Program-made: the position numbers and the translations under genes
Shown here: one piece after another, positions 1 to 50,271 of the stretch
Numbering within the stretch: position 1 is the first letter of the stretch
Layout of the letters: the number at the start of each line of letters is the position of its first letter
The notes under the pieces: generated by a model
Database searches by the model: none
Seen by the model: the letters and a program-made list of their open reading frames with translations, nothing else
What the model was told of the DNA's origin: nothing
From: Candidatus Heimdallarchaeota archaeon
GTDB taxonomy: Archaea > Asgardarchaeota > Heimdallarchaeia > JABLTI01
Assembly (NCBI GenBank): GCA_019058275.1
Contig: JAHLVW010000061.1
Span: 1-64,000 of the forward strand
Direction: 5' to 3'
DNA length: 64,000 nt

Positions 1-1035
1 ATTCTATATATTCCATTGAGTAAAATGAATGCTGGGCCATTGATAGCATTAGTAAGAACTACTAGTATTAGCTTCTTATCTTGAATGAGACCAGAACGTG
101 TTATAAAACCAGGATATCCCCCTCCATGTCCAACTAATGAATCAGCTGATAAGTTTACAACACCAAATCCTAAACCTCTATTGGCTGATTTTCCTTTATA
201 TTGTATTCTTTGCATTTCGCGCTTAATATAATCCGGAAAGAGAATATCATTTCTATAGAAATGTGCTTTATAAAATTTGATTAAATCCTCTACTGTACTA
301 CTCAATCCAGTTGCTGGATCCATAATTTTTGCTTGAACATGTTCCACTTTTTCTCGTTGTTTTCCAGGATATTTTATCTTATAACCTGTAGCGTGTTTGG
401 AGATATTTATCTCATTTACATCAGTATAGGTATTTTTCATTTCTAATGGATCTAGTATTTCTTTTTGTATATAATCATTATAGGATTTTCCAGAAACCAC
501 CTCAATTATCTGACCTAACAAAGTAAAACCGAAATTTGAGTATTTCAAAATTTCATTAGTTTCAAAGTAACTAATCCCTTCCATAACTTGATCCATTATT
601 TCTTTTATTTTAAGGGAATTTCTAAGTTGTCCAATGAGCTGTTTTCCCATCTCGAATTACACCACTCGAATGGGTTAGTAAATGACGAATGCGAACCTGT
701 TGTAGATTTTTATCATTTTCTGATCTAAACCATGGTAGATATTTTGAAATTCTATCATCTATTGATAATTTATCTTCATGATATAGTTTCATTATTGCTG
801 TTGCTGTGAATAATTTTGAATGGGAAGCTATACGAAATAAATGTTGATCAGTTAATTTTGTTTTATTTTCTAGTTCAGCATAACCATATTCTTTTTTGAA
901 AATAATCTCATCTTCTACGAAAATTCCGACAGCTATACCGGGAATTTCTTTAATATAAGTTTGAAAATCAAGCCAATTATCAATAAGATGAAGAGCTTAT
1001 TTGACTATATTCTTATCAAATATTTTCTCTTCCAT
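1..1035 (-). pseudogene. Serine hydrolase (class C beta-lactamase-like), disrupted; 3' end runs off the window
   Basis: Manual translation from ATG 1035: FRIASHSK (SxxK), HLLTHSSG, KYSNFG (YxN), HGGGYPGF. In-frame TAA at 999-997 and a frameshift near 610-625. Absent from the ORF track. Confidence 0.85.
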
Positions 1036-16662: not shown

Positions 16663-16769
16663 TTATCTTAGAAAAATAGAGATATCAATAAAAGAAATTT
16701 TACAAATAATCCTATTTTTTCTTTGTAATACTAAAGATTTATTATTCTCAAGTTTCCAGTAGAATAATT

Positions 16770-18692
16770 ATGAAATCTGTTGAGACTATCTGTGAAAAAT
16801 ACGCAGTTCAAAATGCACTAGAACATGGTGAAGCACAGGTTGGTTCAGTAATGAAGATTATCATGAAAAATAATCCAGAATTACGAAAAGAAGCCAACAA
16901 AGTGAAAGAAATACTTGAGAGGAAAGTAGAATTTGTAAATACATTAGAACAATCAGAAATACAACAAATAGCTCAACAAAAATATCCTGAAATTTTAGTA
17001 GAGGAAATCACTGCTGAAGAAGATGATGTAGATTTCATTAGAAAGATTATCAATAAAGATAATAAAACAGGTAAATTTGGCGGTCGTGTCCGCACACGGT
17101 TTCCTCCCGAACCAAATGGTTACTTACACATAGGTCATGCAAAATCAATAAATCTGAACTATGGAATTGCAGAAGAATATGGTGGAAAATTCAACCTACG
17201 TTTTGATGATACTAATCCATTAACAGAGGAAATTGAGTATGTTAAGGGGATAATAGAAGATGTTAAGTGGTTGGGAGGAGATTTCGAAGACCGATTATTG
17301 TATGCATCAGATTATTTTGACCAATTTTATGAGTATGCCATTCAGTTTGTTAAAAAGGGAAAGGCTTACGTTGATGATCTAACAGTAGAAGAAATTCGTA
17401 AACAAAGAGGTTCCTTAACAGAAACAGGAAAAGAAAGTCCTTATAGAAATAGATCCATTGTAGAAAATCTAGATTTGTTTATTAGGATGAAGAATGGAGA
17501 ATTTCCAGATGGGGCTAGAGTTTTACGAGCAATAATAGATATGAAGCATCCAAATCTATTGATGCGAGACCCAGTTATCTATAGAATACTTCATGCAAAA
17601 CACCACAACACTGGTGATAAGTGGTGTATCTATCCAATGTATGATTGGGCCCATGGACTCGAAGATTCAATAGAAGGAATTACCCATTCAATTTGTACCA
17701 TGGAATTTGAAGTTCATAGAGAATTATATGATTGGTATCTTGACCAATTAGAGGATGAAAATGGTAAACCAATCTATCACCCACAGCAAATTGAATTCGC
17801 TAGATTGAATGTTTCTAATACTGTTCTAAGTAAGCGAAAGATGCTGAAATTGGTTAAAGAAGGATATGTAGATGGATGGGATGATCCTCGAATGTTAACA
17901 ATCGTTGGTTTAAAACGAAGAGGAATAACATCTGAAGCAATCTGTAATTTCTGCAAAGCAATTGGTGTAACTAAAAGAAAAACAGTCATTGATATCTCTA
18001 TGCTAAATAAGTTTGTTAGAGATGATCTTGACAAAAGTTGCACTAGAGTAATGAGTGTTTTAAAGCCATTGAAAGTCACAATCACCAACTATCCTGAAGA
18101 TAAAGGAGAGGAAATTAATGTGCCAAATCATCCTAAAGATAAGAAAATGGGAACAAGAAAAGTGAAATTTGCAAAAACGCTCTACATCGAACAAGATGAT
18201 TTCATGGAAGATCCACCAAAAGATTATCGAAGATTATCACCAAACAAAGAAGTGCGTTTGAAATATGCTTACTATCTTAAATGCGAAAAAGTGATCAAAG
18301 ATAAGAAAACGGGAGTAGTTAAAGAAATTCAATGCACTATTGATCCAAAAACCAAAGGTGGAATCTCTCCTGATGGAAGAGAAGTTGAAGGAACAATTCA
18401 TTGGATTTCAGCAAAACATGCAGTAAAGGCAGAATTCCGGTTATACAATGATCTTTTCACCAAAGTAAATCCTCTTGAGACAGAGGAAGGAAAAGACTTC
18501 ACGGATTATATAAATCCTAATTCTCTTGAAATTCTTCATGGATATGTTGAACCACAATTACAAAAAACGAATATCGGTGATAGATTTCAATTTGAACGAA
18601 ATGGTTTCTTTAACATCGATTATGAGTCCAAGAAAGAAGCTCTAATATTCAATAGAATTATCCCTTTGAGAGATTCATGGACAAAGAAGTAA
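16770..18692 (+). CDS. glnS: Glutaminyl-tRNA synthetase (bacterial-type core) with archaeal GluRS-like N-terminal domain
   Basis: [56 protein letters not shown]...LRDSW. Confidence 0.93.
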
Positions 18693-18696
18693 ATGA

Positions 18697-19611
18697 GTGA
18701 TTTCTTTGAACGATGATAAATCAAAAGATGCAGAAGAGAAAGTTCAGGAGCTGTATTCTCAAGCACTTGATCATTACGAATTATATGAGTACGATAAAGC
18801 TCTTGACCTTTTACTCGAAGCTGAAATGAGTGATCAAAATAATATAGATATTCTAAGAGGAATTGCACAGATCTACTTAATGCTTAAAGGATTTAAAGAA
18901 ACCATAAACTATTGCGAGAAAACTTTAAAGATAAATCCAGAAGATGATGTAACACTAATTGTCTATGGAAGTGCTTATTTGCAACAAGGAGATTTCGAAA
19001 CTGCAAAGGAGTATTTCCAAAAAGCTGAAAAAATCAATCCAGAATCATTTGATGTTAATTTTAATTTGGGTGTTCTTCATATGAATCTCCGAAAATTCCA
19101 GAAAGCATTAGATTTCTTTCATAAAGCAGAATCTATAGATTCAAATGATGTATTCACAAAATTCTCCATCGCTGAAACATATGAAGATTTAGATAAAATA
19201 GATGATGCGATAAAATACTACTCGAAGGTTTTAGAATTAAGTTCTGATGCTTATCCAATAATTATGCGTTTAGCAGAGCTACATTATGATAGAAAGGAAT
19301 ATGAGAAGTCATTAGAATACCAAAAGGAATTTCTAAAAATATTCCCAGATGACCATCTTATAATAAATAATATTGGGTACACATATCTAAAAATGGGTGA
19401 ATTGGAAAAAGCACTAGAATTTATCAAGAAATCTATTGAAATAAACTCAGAATTTGCAGATGCATGGAATAGTCTAGGAGAATATTACGAAATAAAAGAG
19501 GATTACAAGAAAGCATTAGAACACTATCAAAAAGCTCACAGCTTGGATAAAGAGAATCCTGAACATAAAGAAGCAATCGAGAGAATAAGGAAAAAATTAA
19601 AGAAAAAATAA
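18697..19611 (+). CDS. TPR-repeat protein
   Basis: About eight consecutive 34-aa TPR units; starts 4 nt after glnS. Confidence 0.9.
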   Translation: MISLNDDKSKDAEEKVQELYSQALDHYELYEYDKALDLLLEAEMSDQNNIDILRGIAQIYLMLKGFKETINYCEKTLKINPEDDVTLIVYGSAYLQQGDFETAKEYFQKAEKINPESFDVNFNLGVLHMNLRKFQKALDFFHKAESIDSNDVFTKFSIAETYEDLDKIDDAIKYYSKVLELSSDAYPIIMRLAELHYDRKEYEKSLEYQKEFLKIFPDDHLIINNIGYTYLKMGELEKALEFIKKSIEINSEFADAWNSLGEYYEIKEDYKKALEHYQKAHSLDKENPEHKEAIERIRKKLKKK

Positions 19612-22707: not shown

Positions 22708-22817
22708 AGACCCGTAGTCTAGCGGCCCAGGATAGGGGACTTTGAAAGAAGTCCCGATGCCTTGTTGGGGTTTCCAATAATCCCTTGACCAGAGTTCAAA
22801 TCTCTGCGGGTCTACCA
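22708..22817 (+). tRNA. tRNA-Gln(UUG) with 34-nt intron at 37/38 (22746-22779); CCA encoded
   Basis: Acceptor AGACCCG/CGGGTCT+A+CCA; D arm GTCT/GGAT; anticodon stem GGGGA/TCCCT with CT-TTG-A; T arm CAGAG-TTCAAAT-CTCTG. Confidence 0.9.
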
Positions 22818-46809: not shown

Positions 46810-49800
46810 TTAAGGTGCTGGTGTACTTGATTCTTTAAACGCGTTTTCAATCATAGCTTCGATTTGCTCGTCTGTATAGTGGTTCATTGTTATAGCTCTT
46901 GCAGGGCAAGTAACAGCACATACACCACATCCTTCGCAAAGAATTTCGTTTATATGCGATTTTGTATGACCATCCTCAGTTACAATCAAAGATAAGGCAT
47001 TAAATGCACAGGTTGATATGCATGATCCACATCCTACACAGACGTCTTGATCAATACTAGCTACTATTGATTCTTTTTCTATCGATTTGCTTTTAATAAG
47101 TTTCGCTGATAATGTAGCCGCAGCATATCCTTGTGAAACACTATCAGTAATGTCAATAGGTCCTCTACAAGCTCCGGCAATGAATTTACCAGAAGAAGCT
47201 GTTTCTACTGGAGCAAGTTTGATATGTCTTTCAATAAAGAATCCATCCTTATCCACTGAACAATTTAATAGCTCACCAATTTTTTTGGCATCTTCGTTTG
47301 GTTCCATAGCAGTTTGAAGTATGATTAAATCTGGTTTATATCTGATTGTTTTTCCTAAATCAGCATTATAGATGTCGAAAAACATTTTTCCATCGATATC
47401 TTTTCTGATATCGCTTGGTACGCCTCTTATGAAATTGGCTCCCATTGTTCGAGTCTTATTATATAATTCTTCATAGCCTTTGCCAAATGTTCGTATGTCT
47501 TTATAGAATAACAAAGTATCTACTTCTGAACCAAACTTGTTTTTCATTAAGTATGCGTGCTTAATTGATGCTGTACAACAGTATCTTGAACAGTATTCAT
47601 GATAGTTTTTATCTCTGCTTCCAACACAATTTATGAATGCAATTGTTTTTGGTTTTTTACCAGTTGATGGAACAGATATTATCCCATCTGTAGGACCAGC
47701 TGCATTTGTTAATCGTTCAAATTCCATGCCCGTTAAAATGTCTGGATATTCAGGATCCTTGTAATGGTATTCAAGGATAACGCTTGGGTCGAAAGGCTTG
47801 TAACCTGTTGCAACTATTATTGCTCCAACTTTTTCACGTATTTTCTGAGGTAGTTCATCATGATCAATAGCTTGAGCTTCACAGATATGTAAACATTCAT
47901 TGCAAACACCACAATTAGCACAATACAAACATCGAGTAGCTTCTTCCTTAGCATCTTTCTCAGTGTATGGTTTTACAACTTCTATGTTACAATCTGCTAA
48001 CCTCTGTTCTACTGAAGCTTTTGGTAAAGGTTTTCGTTTAATTTTATTGGCTCTTTCAATAGGTATATCAGTGACTACTTCACCAATACGAACTCTTCCT
48101 TTGTAAATTTGGGAATGCGTATCTGGTACATCTGGTCTCCCAACATACAAATTTTCACCTCGGATATATCTATGTACAGATTCAGCAGCCCATTTTCCAG
48201 AAGCAACTGCTTCAATAACTGATTCTGGGCTATAGTAAAATTCACCACAGCAGAAGATGTGGGGATGAGTATGTGATTGCAAGGTTTTTGTATCAACAAT
48301 CAGTTTACCTTTACTATCAACCATATCTTCAGGGATAATAGTCCTATCAAAATACTGTCCAATAGCAATGAAAACATGATCGAAGTTCTCTTCATATTCT
48401 GAACCTTCAATATAGCTTGCTTTTCTTCTTCCATCTGCACCAGGTTGACCTAATTTTGTTTTTAGTAACTCAGCACCCACTAATTTACCATTTTTGCCAA
48501 TGAATTTTCCAACTTGTACTTGTGGATCTAGAAGAATACCTTCTTCTATTGCATCATCAATTTCCTCTTGATATGATGGCATCTCAGATCTACCACGACG
48601 ATAAAGTAGTTTTACTTCAGAAGCACCAAGACGCTTTGCGACTCTTGCAACATCAATTGCAGTATTTCCTCCTCCAACTATACCAACTTTTCCAGTTAGT
48701 TTTCGGATTTTCTTGTCACAAACATCCTTAAGGAAATTTAAGCCTGGAACTACACCTTTTAGGTCTTCTCCATCAACATGGAGTTCGTAATTTCCTATTG
48801 CACCAGAGGCAACAATTACTGCATCATAGCCTCGTCTTCGCAATAAACCTTTCTTCTTAAGATCGTCGAAAGTTAATTCTTCTTCTTGACCTACTCTAAA
48901 ACCAGTTTTTAGTTCAACTCCTAAATCTAAAATTCTTTGAATCTCATAGTCAAGAACATCTTTTGGTAATCGATAATCGGGAATTGCGTACTGTAATAAT
49001 CCACCTGCTTTTTCTTTCATTTCATAGATAGTAACTTTGTAACCTTTCTTTGCCAACCACCAAGCTGATGCTAAACCTGAAGGACCACCACCTACAATGG
49101 CTACTTTTTCTTTGTATTTCTTTTCAAGTGGTTTTACTTTGGCTTCTTCTAGCATATGTTCTCTTTCATATTCGCAAATGAAATTTTTCAAGGCTCTAAT
49201 TGCTATGGGATCATCAACTTCTCCTCTACCACAAAATTCTTCGCAATGTCCTACACAGATCTTTCCACAGACAGATGGAAATGGATTTTCTTCTCTGATT
49301 AGTTCAAGTGCTTCTTTGTACTTGCCCAATGCTATTAGATTCACATAACCTTGAACATGAATATCAGCTGGACAACCATCTCTACATGGGGGTATGCCTT
49401 TTTTATCTATGATATAACATTGCGGTACAGCTTGTGGGAATGGTATATAGGTTGCTTTATGAGTTGTTATGCCTACATCAAATGTACTAATAATATTCGT
49501 TGGACAATTTTCAGTACATTCACCACATCCAGTACACTTTTCTGGATCAATATATCTTGGCATTTGTAAGATATCTACATCAAAGTTACCTACATATCCT
49601 GAAATATTAATTACTTCAGCATTAGTCATCAATGTAATTCTTGGATGTTCAGCAACTTCAGCCATTTTTGGGGTTAAAATACAAGCAGAGCAATCTTGTG
49701 TTGGAAATGTTTTGTCAAGTTGAGCCATTCTACCACCAATGGTGGGTTCTTTTTCAACTAAGATAGTATCAATTTCGAGATTTGCTAACGCTAGAGCAGA

Positions 49801-50271
49801 TGAAATCCCTGTGATACCTCCACCAATAACTAAAGCTTTTGGAACCCCTGATACAATATTTGGTTCCAAAGGTTGTAAAAGTGCAGCTCTACTAACAGCC
49901 ATCCTCACTAGATCTTTTGCTTTTTGTGTAGCTTTCTCATGATCGTCTGTAACCCAACTTACGTGCTCACGTATATTTGACATCTCAAAAAGATACTTAT
50001 TTAATCCTGCAGCTTGCACAGTTTTTCTAAAAGTTTCTTCGTGCATTCTTGGACTACAAGATGAGACTACAATTCGATTTAAATTATGTTCTTTAATATC
50101 CTCTTGTATCTTTCTTTGACTCGGTTTTGAGCAACTATACTTGAATGTATGGGATTGGACGACATGTGGAAGCTTCTTCGAATATTCTGTTACTTCTACA
50201 CAATTGATTGTTGAGGCTATATTTGAACCACATTTGCAAACATAGACTCCGATTCTTATTTCCTCGCTCAT
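46810..50271 (-). CDS. hdrA: Large HdrA with inserted GltD/NfnB-like NAD(P)H module (HdrL-type)
   Basis: YVCKCG, CSP..HE, QLDKTFPT.DC, CVGSRD..CSRYCC; insert PCRDGCP...CGKIC..CE..C, GGGPSG, GGGNTA. Confidence 0.93.
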   Translation of the reverse strand: MSEEIRIGVYVCKCGSNIASTINCVEVTEYSKKLPHVVQSHTFKYSCSKPSQRKIQEDIKEHNLNRIVVSSCSPRMHEETFRKTVQAAGLNKYLFEMSNIREHVSWVTDDHEKATQKAKDLVRMAVSRAALLQPLEPNIVSGVPKALVIGGGITGISSALALANLEIDTILVEKEPTIGGRMAQLDKTFPTQDCSACILTPKMAEVAEHPRITLMTNAEVINISGYVGNFDVDILQMPRYIDPEKCTGCGECTENCPTNIISTFDVGITTHKATYIPFPQAVPQCYIIDKKGIPPCRDGCPADIHVQGYVNLIALGKYKEALELIREENPFPSVCGKICVGHCEEFCGRGEVDDPIAIRALKNFICEYEREHMLEEAKVKPLEKKYKEKVAIVGGGPSGLASAWWLAKKGYKVTIYEMKEKAGGLLQYAIPDYRLPKDVLDYEIQRILDLGVELKTGFRVGQEEELTFDDLKKKGLLRRRGYDAVIVASGAIGNYELHVDGEDLKGVVPGLNFLKDVCDKKIRKLTGKVGIVGGGNTAIDVARVAKRLGASEVKLLYRRGRSEMPSYQEEIDDAIEEGILLDPQVQVGKFIGKNGKLVGAELLKTKLGQPGADGRRKASYIEGSEYEENFDHVFIAIGQYFDRTIIPEDMVDSKGKLIVDTKTLQSHTHPHIFCCGEFYYSPESVIEAVASGKWAAESVHRYIRGENLYVGRPDVPDTHSQIYKGRVRIGEVVTDIPIERANKIKRKPLPKASVEQRLADCNIEVVKPYTEKDAKEEATRCLYCANCGVCNECLHICEAQAIDHDELPQKIREKVGAIIVATGYKPFDPSVILEYHYKDPEYPDILTGMEFERLTNAAGPTDGIISVPSTGKKPKTIAFINCVGSRDKNYHEYCSRYCCTASIKHAYLMKNKFGSEVDTLLFYKDIRTFGKGYEELYNKTRTMGANFIRGVPSDIRKDIDGKMFFDIYNADLGKTIRYKPDLIILQTAMEPNEDAKKIGELLNCSVDKDGFFIERHIKLAPVETASSGKFIAGACRGPIDITDSVSQGYAAATLSAKLIKSKSIEKESIVASIDQDVCVGCGSCISTCAFNALSLIVTEDGHTKSHINEILCEGCGVCAVTCPARAITMNHYTDEQIEAMIENAFKESSTPAP

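Follow-up and report, generated by a model that had tools for sequence, protein, structure and literature searches.

A predicted bacterial-type glutaminyl-tRNA synthetase with an archaeal glutamyl-tRNA synthetase N-terminal domain in a Heimdallarchaeial genome

A Heimdallarchaeial genome (Asgard archaea) carries what is, judged by its sequence, an intact glutaminyl-tRNA synthetase (GlnRS) of the bacterial type, joined to a small N-terminal domain (N-domain) of archaeal glutamyl-tRNA synthetase (GluRS). The gene was studied in a stretch of 64,000 nucleotides of one contig, in the following called the window. Reviews up to 2022 report no archaeon with a GlnRS and attribute this absence to the archaeal tRNA-Gln (A1:U72, A73), which is incompatible with both bacterial and eukaryotic GlnRS (PMC9499178, PMC8762117, PMC2978374). 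Within the class of archaea nearest to eukaryotes this barrier appears to have been crossed, and apparently in two ways: by grafting the GluRS N-domain on the enzyme while the A73 tRNAs were kept, or by combining the bare enzyme with a duplicate G73 tRNA-Gln set. The chimera would be one way of fitting a bacterial-type GlnRS to archaeal glutamine tRNAs.

The following course of events, taken as a whole, is in our view probable. Most likely, bacteria supplied the core to an ancestor shared by two, possibly three, Heimdallarchaeial families. In the ancestor of two of these, a duplicate of the N-terminal helical domain (~80 residues) of a Heimdallarchaeial GluRS would have been joined to it. The core would activate glutamine and charge tRNA-Gln directly; the N-domain, attached by an acidic linker, would help this foreign core to bind the archaeal-type tRNA-Gln (A1:U72, A73), which lacks G73, a determinant of bacterial GlnRS. 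The enzyme would act beside, and not in place of, the non-discriminating GluRS and GatDE.

Domain layout and identity of the core

Table 1. Features of the glnS locus. Positions refer to the window.
Feature	Position	Strand	Remarks
glnS-like ORF, chimeric GlnRS	16770..18692	+	open frame, 640 aa + stop
N-terminal domain, residues 1-84	16770..17021	+	five-helix module, homologous to archaeal GluRS N-terminal domain
acidic junction/linker, residues ~76-87	16995..17030	+	between N-domain and core; sequence read directly
predicted bacterial-type GlnRS core, residues 88-640	17031..18689	+	matches to bacterial GlnRS structures
class I catalytic domain PF00749, residues 107-421	17088..18032	+	Pfam; contains HIGH, LSK, the glutamine pocket and the unpairing loop with L216; residues mapped to E. 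coli GlnRS numbering
Cys309 codon	17694..17696	+	corresponds by alignment to Cys229 of E. coli; the aligned GluRS have Arg
two beta-barrel anticodon-binding domains	18039..18620	+	PF03950, residues 424-525; PF20974, residues 542-617; contain the G36 loop with R488
tRNA-Gln(UUG) gene	22708..22817	+	Rfam RF00005, 48.7 bits; ARAGORN with introns

The whole protein scored 675.3 bits on the HMM TIGR00440 (cut-off 425.8), with a match that covers model positions 1-524. As the first-pass annotation had stated, similarity to GlnRS starts at D88 (DFIRKII); the Pfam domains PF00749, PF03950 and PF20974 all match. Against the PDB, bacterial GlnRS structures scored 620-661 bits and were matched over residues 82/88-639; the scores were about 415 bits for eukaryotic GlnRS and 217 bits for archaeal GluRS. 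Identity values of the core give the same order: 57-65% with bacterial GlnRS of many phyla, 43-47% with eukaryotic GlnRS, and 27-37% with archaeal GluRS.

The class I signatures are found at residues 120-123 (HIGH) and 353-355 (LSK, of the KMSKS-type loop), and the glutamine pocket is complete: the residues R30, Y211, H215, S227, C229, F233 and Q255 of E. coli GlnS correspond to R110, Y291, H295, S307, C309, F313 and Q340. The criteria for this pocket were taken from PMC2978374 (Nureki et al. 2010), according to which all GlnRS possess a Cys at the position of C309 and GluRS a conserved Arg. The four archaeal GluRS aligned for comparison have R, V/G, Y, V/A and I/Y/L at the sites of C309, H295, Y291, S307 and Q340, respectively. 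The first-pass annotation, which had pointed to the motifs PMYD and SICTMEF (present as YPMYD and HSICTMEF) and to a Cys replacing the Arg of GluRS, was right in both respects. According to the alignment, a 4-residue insertion for unpairing of the acceptor end (L216, the equivalent of Leu136), Q340 and R488 are common to bacterial, but not to eukaryotic GlnRS. An 8-residue loop for the recognition of G36, here with R488 (E. coli R402), occurs in all GlnRS and in none of the GluRS aligned; the U35 readers R341 and Q517 are matched as well. By these signatures, the core is a GlnRS of bacterial type and not a GluRS.

With bacterial GlnRS (E. coli GlnS, PDB 1GTR, 1QTQ, 1O0B; P. aeruginosa, 5BNZ; TIGR00440), the enzyme shares 53-65% identity over residues 88-640, the three Pfam domains and the motifs HIGH and (M/L)SK. 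It differs from those compared by the additional N-terminal region of 87 residues, by a 5-residue insertion after LDQL, and by Val315, which replaces the acceptor-stem reader Asp235 of E. coli. Moreover, the tRNA-Gln of the host has A1:U72 and A73, in contrast to U1:A72 and G73 of the bacterial system.

The N-terminal domain

When the N-domain was searched alone with phmmer, residues 3-70 aligned with residues 3-71 of M. thermautotrophicus GluRS (PDB 3AII) at E = 8.8e-10. A profile of 94 such N-domains, which were extracted by alignment for comparison, matched residues 4-82 of 3AII at E = 8.2e-24 and no other PDB entry. The assignment of the N-terminal ~80 residues to the N-domain of archaeal GluRS, already made in the first-pass annotation, is thereby confirmed. 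In archaeal non-discriminating GluRS (3AII, residues 1-85; TIGR00463) the domain has the same N-terminal position; the rest of the Heimdallarchaeial protein, by contrast, is GlnRS. An exhaustive search of residues 1-86 against 1.84 billion representatives found 33 proteins, in all of which (33/33) the match is N-terminal. The full-length proteins among them comprise 541-608 residues, which is the length of archaeal GluRS, and five (P0128, P0130, P0136, P0144, P0153) align with GluRS along their length. Across the 94 GluRS and GlnRS N-domains, N15, A16, G20, A22, N57 and P73 are conserved.

The AF2 model of the N-domain has a mean pLDDT of 88.9 and consists of helices 4-19, 24-34, 36-58, 61-71 and 73-81; in the linker, residues 81-84 have pLDDT values under 50. 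With a net charge of -3, equal to the median of the GlnRS N-domains, the domain is not basic. No Pfam or NCBIfam family matched it, residues 1-105 are without a Pfam match at E-values up to 10, and a PDB search with Foldseek gave nothing. VIA-align gave matches only at Z 5-6, all to helical proteins. In the crystal of GluRS the N-domain was disordered (PMC2978374).

The GlnRS-YqeY of D. radiodurans (PDB 2HZ7; Deniziak et al. 2007, PMC1865053) is likewise a bacterial-type core with a small helical appendage of the indirect pathway on a flexible linker. Its YqeY domain lowers the KM for tRNA-Gln 24- to 100-fold, in cis only (PMC1865053); by analogy, we infer a role in tRNA binding for the Heimdallarchaeial N-domain. 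The appendages themselves are different: that of D. radiodurans is C-terminal and has ~215 residues, whereas the Heimdallarchaeial one is N-terminal, has ~80 residues and apparently stems from GluRS and not from YqeY/GatB, with no signal for PF02637 or PF09424. The model NF011291 (GlnRS/YqeY fusion), after which PGAP names these proteins, is matched at positions 12-558 of 769, without the C-terminal YqeY (~560-769); the Heimdallarchaeial protein ends at the GlnRS core. A kinship of the N-domain with the tails of YqeY and GatB, which goes back to a label in Nureki et al. 2010, was not reproduced by Pfam or hhalign and only weakly by fold. For the 94 N-domains, neither PF09424 nor PF02637 was among the 25 most-matched Pfam families (E-values up to 1), and in 31 Heimdallarchaeial genomes PF02637 matches only GatE tails. 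Comparing the profiles of N-domain and GatE tail with hhalign gave a probability of 1.4% over 17 columns; the fold match with YqeY (8XJG; Z 5.0, RMSD 1.7 Å over 46 residues) lies amid many unrelated helical matches at Z 5-6.

Eukaryotic GlnRS (PF04558/PF04557; human 4YE6, yeast 4H3S) likewise has a helical domain added at its N-terminus, and the first-pass annotation had seen in the chimera a convergence on this architecture. This can be upheld at most as a positional analogy: the two N-domain profiles gave an hhalign probability of 0.6% over 5 columns, PF04558 and PF04557 did not match, and the fold match is weak (Z 5.0, RMSD 4.5 Å). In addition, the eukaryotic core lacks the bacterial-type unpairing insertion present in the Heimdallarchaeial enzyme.

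Occurrence of the fusion

A glnS gene was detected in 43 of 301 Asgard genomes (40 above the cut-off), which belong to four families of one class; the weak match in the fourth one, f7, turned out to be a GluRS once the sequence had been fetched. Searches in the two largest other Asgard families found glnS in 0/76 and 0/68 genomes. This patchy distribution fits an import. The N-domain is present in all 14 GlnRS genes fetched from families f1 and f2 and in none of the six from f4: the fusion is conserved in two Heimdallarchaeial families, and a third one has GlnRS without the N-domain. Among full-length relatives in Heimdallarchaeial metagenome-assembled genomes, one protein is 100% identical and the others are 62-90% identical. 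Among public runs, no RNA run is listed as containing the gene.

Glutamine tRNAs and the indirect route

A tRNA at 22708, which the first-pass annotation had mentioned, is real. It is a tRNA-Gln(UUG) gene located 4 kb downstream of glnS, with a 34-nt intron, an encoded CCA and the archaeal identity pattern A1:U72, A73. ARAGORN in default mode reported no tRNA in the window, whereas Rfam and ARAGORN with introns detected the gene. Two further tRNA-Gln genes of this genome lie on contigs C101 (UUG) and C77 (CUG). In the genomes G123 and G238 of the same genus, the orthologous tRNA gene follows glnS at a distance of ~100 nt, and tRNA-Gln genes adjoin glnS in many genomes. In the lineages with N-domain, tRNA-Gln carries A73 almost throughout; exceptions are the CUG tRNA of G196 (G73) and the UUG tRNA of G238 (U73). 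In contrast, family f4 possesses an additional tRNA-Gln pair whose discriminator is the bacterial G73; it is mostly found next to glnS. This difference, which is new here, is in effect a single phylogenetic contrast. In genome G223, a tRNA with UUA anticodon lies beside glnS; a recoding of stop codons was considered and is not supported, because TAA still ends four of six long frames at the loci of that genome.

A search for the indirect route, which the first-pass annotation had proposed as a check, found gltX and two gatD/gatE pairs in this genome; the second GatDE pair occurs in five of five genomes of the genus. Within the class, 47 of 51 genomes have GluRS and 46 of 51 GatD, and the closed GlnRS-bearing ones are among them. 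Since GluRS and GatDE are still present, the direct route stands beside the indirect one; as far as gene content tells, GlnRS has not replaced the indirect route.

Origin of the enzyme and alternative explanations

Quick tree searches were unstable, as a constrained tree was better than the free quick tree by 37 lnL; for this reason, a careful search was run. With PMSF C20, the tree separates eukaryotic GlnRS and giant viruses from bacteria and Heimdallarchaeia (support 97 for each group, both starred). In the careful ML tree both Heimdallarchaeial clades are situated inside the bacterial radiation: f4 is placed deep among bacteria, together with a sequence of Myxococcota (84/86), and around the f1/f2 clade the backbone has supports of 15-18%. 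None of 200 bootstrap trees showed bacteria as one clade. AU tests rejected neither a single clade of bacteria (delta lnL 10.8, p 0.396) nor a single clade of all Heimdallarchaeial GlnRS (delta lnL 1.36, p 0.48). The horizontal acquisition of glnS, as assumed in the first-pass annotation, agrees with the nesting among bacteria; import of the core from bacteria is favoured, though its direction is not enforced by the AU result for bacteria.

The N-domain groups with Heimdallarchaeial GluRS N-domains (SH-aLRT 85-87, in a tree of 83 columns with no starred support), and appears to nest, weakly, within those of crown Heimdallarchaeia. The host origin proposed for it earlier is in line with this grouping; yet the N-domain is just 31.7% identical to that of its own genome's GluRS, and no closer to it than core is to core (33%). 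Identity to any GluRS N-domain is 30-35%, which indicates that the fusion is old. For the same reason no donor was identified, and identity alone does not separate a graft from old co-inheritance. Judged from these values, the graft is neither recent nor derived from the present host GluRS gene.

A course opposite to import would be ancestral retention. In this view, an archaeal-type GluRS gave rise to GlnRS in the stem of Heimdallarchaeia and eukaryotes, and the new enzyme kept the GluRS N-domain, which f4 and bacteria lost. The Heimdallarchaeial enzyme would then be a relic of the birth of GlnRS, namely a GluRS duplicate that became specific for glutamine in the archaeal line from which eukaryotes came, and the source of bacterial-type GlnRS would be a Heimdallarchaeial donor and not eukaryotes. 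The similar divergence of N-domain (~32%) and core (~33%) from their GluRS counterparts is compatible with this course, as are both AU tests; a group of bacteria and Heimdallarchaeia as sister to eukaryotic GlnRS is also what retention predicts. With LG+G4 and archaeal GluRS as sole outgroup, f1/f2 even formed a basal grade. This grade, however, vanished when eukaryotic GlnRS and a site-heterogeneous (PMSF) model were used, and therefore looks like long-branch attraction. Further points against retention are the bootstrap trees, the deep position of f4 among bacteria, the restriction of glnS to f1, f2 and f4, which would require many losses, and the weak nesting of the N-domain within crown GluRS N-domains. 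We consider retention quite unlikely, and give the relic reading just as little weight. The enzyme is a new data point on the origin of GlnRS.

The bacterial import with subsequent fusion also has to be weighed against explanations that concern the gene itself or its function. The bin has an estimated contamination of 6.8% and the core is 57-65% identical to bacterial GlnRS, which might suggest bacterial contamination or an assembly chimera of the 5' end of an archaeal GluRS gene and a bacterial glnS. This is already refuted: GatE, GatD and the intron-bearing archaeal tRNA-Gln are located on the same 102-kb contig, GC content is even across the region (~0.30-0.33), and 14 fetched genomes share the fused gene, among them the closed chromosomes G026 and G074 of f2. 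Moreover, a 17.5-kb contig of a second strain (98.4% identical, from other samples, 121x depth) spans positions 16726-19000 and crosses the junction unbroken. The host is an archaeon, as the first-pass annotation had assumed, and belongs to the Heimdallarchaeia; the contig is not bacterial, nor does it have a chimeric joint at ~17020. When all ORFs on contig C54 with 150 aa or more were compared with the remainder of the bin, no syntenic duplicate region emerged. It is very improbable that the protein is another GluRS, or that it charges Glu as a misacylating enzyme and merely resembles GlnRS. The protein does reach 395 bits on the archaeal GluRS model, just below the cut-off of 402, partly because of the N-domain; Cys309 at the site of the GluRS Arg, His295, Ser307, Gln340 and the G36 loop, which are absent from GluRS, the score on the GlnRS model, and a distinct bona fide GluRS on contig C11 (454 bits) argue against it. 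A specialised second pathway, in which GlnRS charges only a dedicated glnS-linked tRNA-Gln or acts under particular conditions while GluRS and GatDE produce most Gln-tRNA, is a further alternative. Nearly all genomes with GlnRS keep GluRS and GatDE, genus g1 possesses an additional intron-bearing tRNA-Gln(UUG) that is linked to glnS beside an unlinked UUG gene, a full set each of G73 and A73 tRNA-Gln is present in f4, and in two Heimdallarchaeial lineages glnS is found beside cox genes (preprint, 10.1101/2024.07.04.601786). Nevertheless, we regard it as unlikely, as the closed genomes of f2 contain a single A73 tRNA-Gln pair, to be shared by both routes, and no cox genes are next to glnS in this window.

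Two sets of glutamine tRNAs in family f4

The two apparent ways of crossing the barrier make an old idea directly testable, namely that tRNA identity, and not the availability of genes, bars the transfer of synthetases. Tentatively, this family may run two parallel Gln-tRNA systems, in which G73 tRNAs serve GlnRS and A73 tRNAs serve GluRS and GatDE; this would be a natural pair of possibly orthogonal glutamine systems. We judge it somewhat doubtful, yet likelier than the reading of the chimera as a relic, and of lesser novelty. The extra G73 pair was found in six of six GlnRS-bearing genomes of f4, as opposed to one of five in which GlnRS was not found.

A two-part glutaminyl-tRNA synthetase

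The product of the glnS-like frame (see Table) comprises an N-domain (residues 1-84), an acidic junction (approximately 76-87) and a core (88-640). According to the first-pass annotation, the N-domain of an archaeal GluRS is grafted here on a bacterial-type GlnRS. This two-part make-up is real, as follows from comparisons with solved structures: residues 1-105, submitted alone, had as their sole match residues 3-71 of 3AII, the archaeal GluRS of M. thermautotrophicus (E 8.8e-10), and bacterial GlnRS structures matched with 620-661 bits over residues 82/88-639. Scores for the other structures were about 415 bits (eukaryotic GlnRS), about 280 (eukaryotic GluRS) and 217 (3AII, whose alignment with the full protein begins at residue 3). 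In NCBIfam, 675 bits were reached with the GlnRS equivalog TIGR00440, whose cut-off is 426; with the model for archaeal GluRS, aligned from residue 5, the score stayed slightly below the cut-off (about 396 versus 402 bits).

The residues of the core were mapped onto E. coli GlnRS numbering (in brackets) by alignment. The glutamine pocket is complete: R110 (R30), Y291 (Y211), H295 (H215), S307 (S227), C309 (C229), F313 (F233) and Q340 (Q255). Arginine occupies the cysteine position, and the histidine is lacking, in the four aligned archaeal GluRS, among them that of the source genome; both positions distinguish GlnRS from GluRS according to Nureki et al. (PMC2978374). An eight-residue loop for G36 recognition, with R488 (R402), is present in the core and missing in GluRS. 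A four-residue insertion for acceptor unpairing, with L216 (L136), is common to the core and bacterial GlnRS, and neither eukaryotic GlnRS nor GluRS has it; at Q340 and R488, likewise, the bacterial and not the eukaryotic state is found. In contrast to E. coli GlnRS, where Asp235 reads the acceptor stem, the chimeric enzyme has Val315. Core identity was 57-65% with GlnRS of many bacterial phyla, 43-47% with eukaryotic GlnRS and 27-37% with archaeal GluRS. The protein is very probably a working GlnRS.

Features of the window and tRNA-Gln loci of related genomes
Feature	Location	Strand	Description
glnS-like ORF, chimeric GlnRS	16770-18692	+	open frame, 640 residues
Class I Glu/Gln catalytic domain	residues 107-421		Pfam
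Two beta-barrel anticodon-binding domains	residues 424-525 and 542-617		Pfam
TPR-repeat protein gene	18697-19611	+	304 aa
tRNA-Gln(UUG)	22708-22817		34-nt intron after position 37/38, encoded CCA
Paralogous ORF	46810-50271	-	1153 aa
f4 tRNA-Gln, L106	G259:C1:2446082-2446271
f4 tRNA-Gln, L335	G259:C1:2761946-2762018
f4 tRNA-Gln, L341, L325, L336, L340
Unlinked tRNA-Gln(UUG), L369	G238:C41:228195-228267		U73
tRNA beside glnS, L102	G223:C187, L102:2229-2302		anticodon UUA

Integrity of gene and contig

The gene is real and intact. The window covers bases 1-64000 of the 102-kb contig C54, which belongs to a 4.1-Mb bin (92.8% complete, 6.8% contamination); its GC content is about 30% throughout. 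Near relatives of the GlnRS protein are labelled Heimdallarchaeota, Heimdallarchaeaceae or Asgard, and gatE, gatD and a tRNA-Gln gene that contains an intron and encodes its CCA lie on the same contig, the gat genes just beyond the window. The stretch is present as a whole in public assemblies of the source sediment samples. From other samples of that study, a strain with 98.4% identity contributes a 17.5-kb contig that spans 16726-19000 at a depth of 121, unbroken over the junction, and the fused gene is also found in the closed Heimdallarchaeial chromosomes G026 and G074. Contamination or an assembly chimera near position 17020 is thus ruled out by the archaeal contig genes, the spanning contig and the closed chromosomes.

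When all C54 ORFs of 150 aa or longer were compared with the rest of the bin, paralogues were scattered and no duplicated genome segment appeared; by far the closest duplicate was the 1153-aa ORF, with a full-length, 64.5% identical paralogue on C33. In the second strain (runs X4 and X5), one base is missing at 18674-18675, shifting the last six or so glnS codons. The TPR-repeat gene starts 4 nt past the glnS stop on the same strand, and because of this arrangement the two are probably co-transcribed; same-genus genomes have a tRNA-Gln gene shortly after glnS at this place.

Distribution and origin of the core

According to reviews (PMC9499178, PMC8762117, PMC2978374), archaea have no GlnRS, and a tRNA barrier to the enzyme is invoked there; its transfer to archaea is mentioned in passing in one paper (PMC8879553), and a 2024 preprint (10.1101/2024.07.04.601786) describes glnS as a neighbour of cox genes in two lineages of Heimdallarchaeia. 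We found glnS in 43 of 301 sampled Asgard genomes, all of a single class: 8/10 in family f1, 21/29 in f2, 12/21 in f4 and one weak match in f7, which turned out to be a GluRS. It was not found in the two largest other Asgard families (0/76 and 0/68 genomes). The N-domain, with a conserved start, is present in all 14 fetched f1/f2 genes and absent from all six of f4. A 4.9-kb contig labelled Thermoplasmata archaeon (L024, JAGGSL010000109.1) encodes a bacterial-type GlnRS without N-domain that falls among bacteria in the tree; it represents either a further acquisition by archaea or bacterial DNA that was binned wrongly.

With archaeal GluRS as the sole outgroup and LG+G4, f1/f2 formed a basal grade, which was lost once eukaryotic GlnRS, obtained via a giant-virus homologue, and the PMSF C20 model were used. 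In the latter tree, archaeal GluRS is followed by a split between eukaryotes plus giant viruses (support 97) and bacteria plus Heimdallarchaeia (97), with f1/f2 (100) and f4 (100) inside an unresolved bacterial radiation. In a careful search under LG+G4 with eukaryotes as the root, f1/f2 branched close to the base (support 15-18%), and f4 grouped with a sequence from Myxococcota (84/86). In none of the 200 bootstrap trees of this search did bacteria form one clade, which speaks for the proposed horizontal acquisition; the AU test, however, did not reject such a clade (delta lnL 10.8, p 0.396), and the direction of transfer claimed at first goes beyond the evidence. Import from bacteria is the reading favoured by these trees, and a Heimdallarchaeial origin of the bacterial-type GlnRS is a much less likely alternative. 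A single clade of all Heimdallarchaeial GlnRS was not rejected either (delta lnL 1.36, p 0.48), and one acquisition or two are equally possible.

Origin and role of the N-domain

Among 1.84 billion representatives, the N-domain occurred only at N-termini, in fragments and in full-length proteins that, at 541-608 aa, are as long as archaeal GluRS. Compared with 111 aligned archaeal GluRS N-domains, its best identities were 30-35%; with that of the source genome's own GluRS it shares 31.7%, about as much as core with core. Identity among GlnRS N-domains has a median of 49%. In an 83-column tree they group with Heimdallarchaeial GluRS N-domains (an f4 subset, then f2 and f6) at an SH-aLRT of 85-87, which is not strong; the donor was therefore probably a Heimdallarchaeial GluRS. 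The fusion is old and precedes the f1/f2 split.

AlphaFold2 predicted a confident five-helix bundle (pLDDT 88.9) followed by a disordered acidic link. The equivalent GluRS region has been described as a disordered 'YQEY domain' (PMC2978374), and NCBI names relatives of the chimeric enzyme 'glutamine--tRNA ligase/YqeY domain fusion protein', a model whose match stops before the YqeY part. A YqeY relationship was not reproduced: the N-domain had no Pfam match, the PF02637 profile, run on 31 Heimdallarchaeial genomes, hit nothing but GatE tails, hhalign gave a probability of 1.4% against these tails, and Foldseek against the PDB returned no match. VIA-align reached Z 5.0 with a YqeY protein and with residues 119-182 of human GlnRS, among unrelated helical matches scoring equally. 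As the N-domain is also slightly acidic, its putative role as a tRNA-binding helper rests on analogy with Deinococcus GlnRS, whose YqeY domain in cis lowers KM for tRNA-Gln 24- to 100-fold (PMC1865053), and on the discriminator pattern described below. Of the tRNA-binding domain assumed at the outset, the homology to archaeal GluRS stands and the function exceeds the evidence; so does convergence on the eukaryotic architecture, given an hhalign probability of 0.6% against the eukaryotic GlnRS N-domain.

Indirect route and tRNA-Gln genes

The source genome encodes an archaeal GluRS on C11 (454 bits). Its GatE/GatD genes form two pairs, of which the canonical one is located on C5 and the other, diverged, at C54:67228-70682 (loci L004, L005, L007, L323). 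The latter, 32% and 46% identical to the former, lies about 50 kb from glnS. Each of the five genomes of the genus encodes GatD twice at full length, and in G238 a distance of 22 kb separates glnS from the second pair. Among 51 genomes of the class at least 85% complete, closed GlnRS-bearing ones included, 47 have GluRS and 46 GatD. This gene content indicates that the direct route is added to the indirect one and does not replace it.

A default ARAGORN run missed the tRNA-Gln(UUG) of the window; in the source genome, C101 adds an intronless UUG gene and C77 a CUG gene. In many genomes with either GlnRS form, tRNA-Gln genes adjoin glnS. In G123 and G238, of the same genus, the intron-bearing UUG gene follows after about 100 nt, whereas 4 kb of other genes intervene in the source genome. 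A custom tRNA-Gln covariance model was used to search closed and near-complete genomes. In f1/f2, A1:U72 and A73 occur almost throughout: all three genes of the source genome and one pair each in G026, G074, G133 and G003 have A73, the exceptions being a CUG gene of G196 (G73) and a UUG gene of G238 (U73). The latter is unlinked, and U73 is the eukaryotic discriminator.

In the f4 genomes, without N-domain, a CUG and a UUG gene with G73, the bacterial discriminator, form a tandem pair, which adjoins glnS in five cases and is separated from it by 117 kb in G244. The second set of these genomes has A73 and is mostly intron-bearing; among the introns, one lies in the T-arm and another in the D-loop. 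Both sets have the same acceptor stem, AGCCCCG/CGGGGCU, and the G73 set therefore seems to have arisen by duplication within the lineage and not by import from bacteria. The G73 type was found in 6/6 f4 genomes with GlnRS versus 1/5 in which GlnRS was not found, counts that are indicative only, the genomes being incomplete and related. The pattern, essentially one phylogenetic contrast, suggests two ways past the tRNA barrier: changing the enzyme by adding the N-domain, or the tRNA by G73 copies. A literature search found neither the GluRS-derived N-domain of GlnRS nor the G73/A73 sets described. In G223, the tRNA beside glnS with anticodon UUA may represent an ochre suppressor or a tRNA-Gln copy in decay; four of six long frames in the loci of that genome still terminate at TAA.
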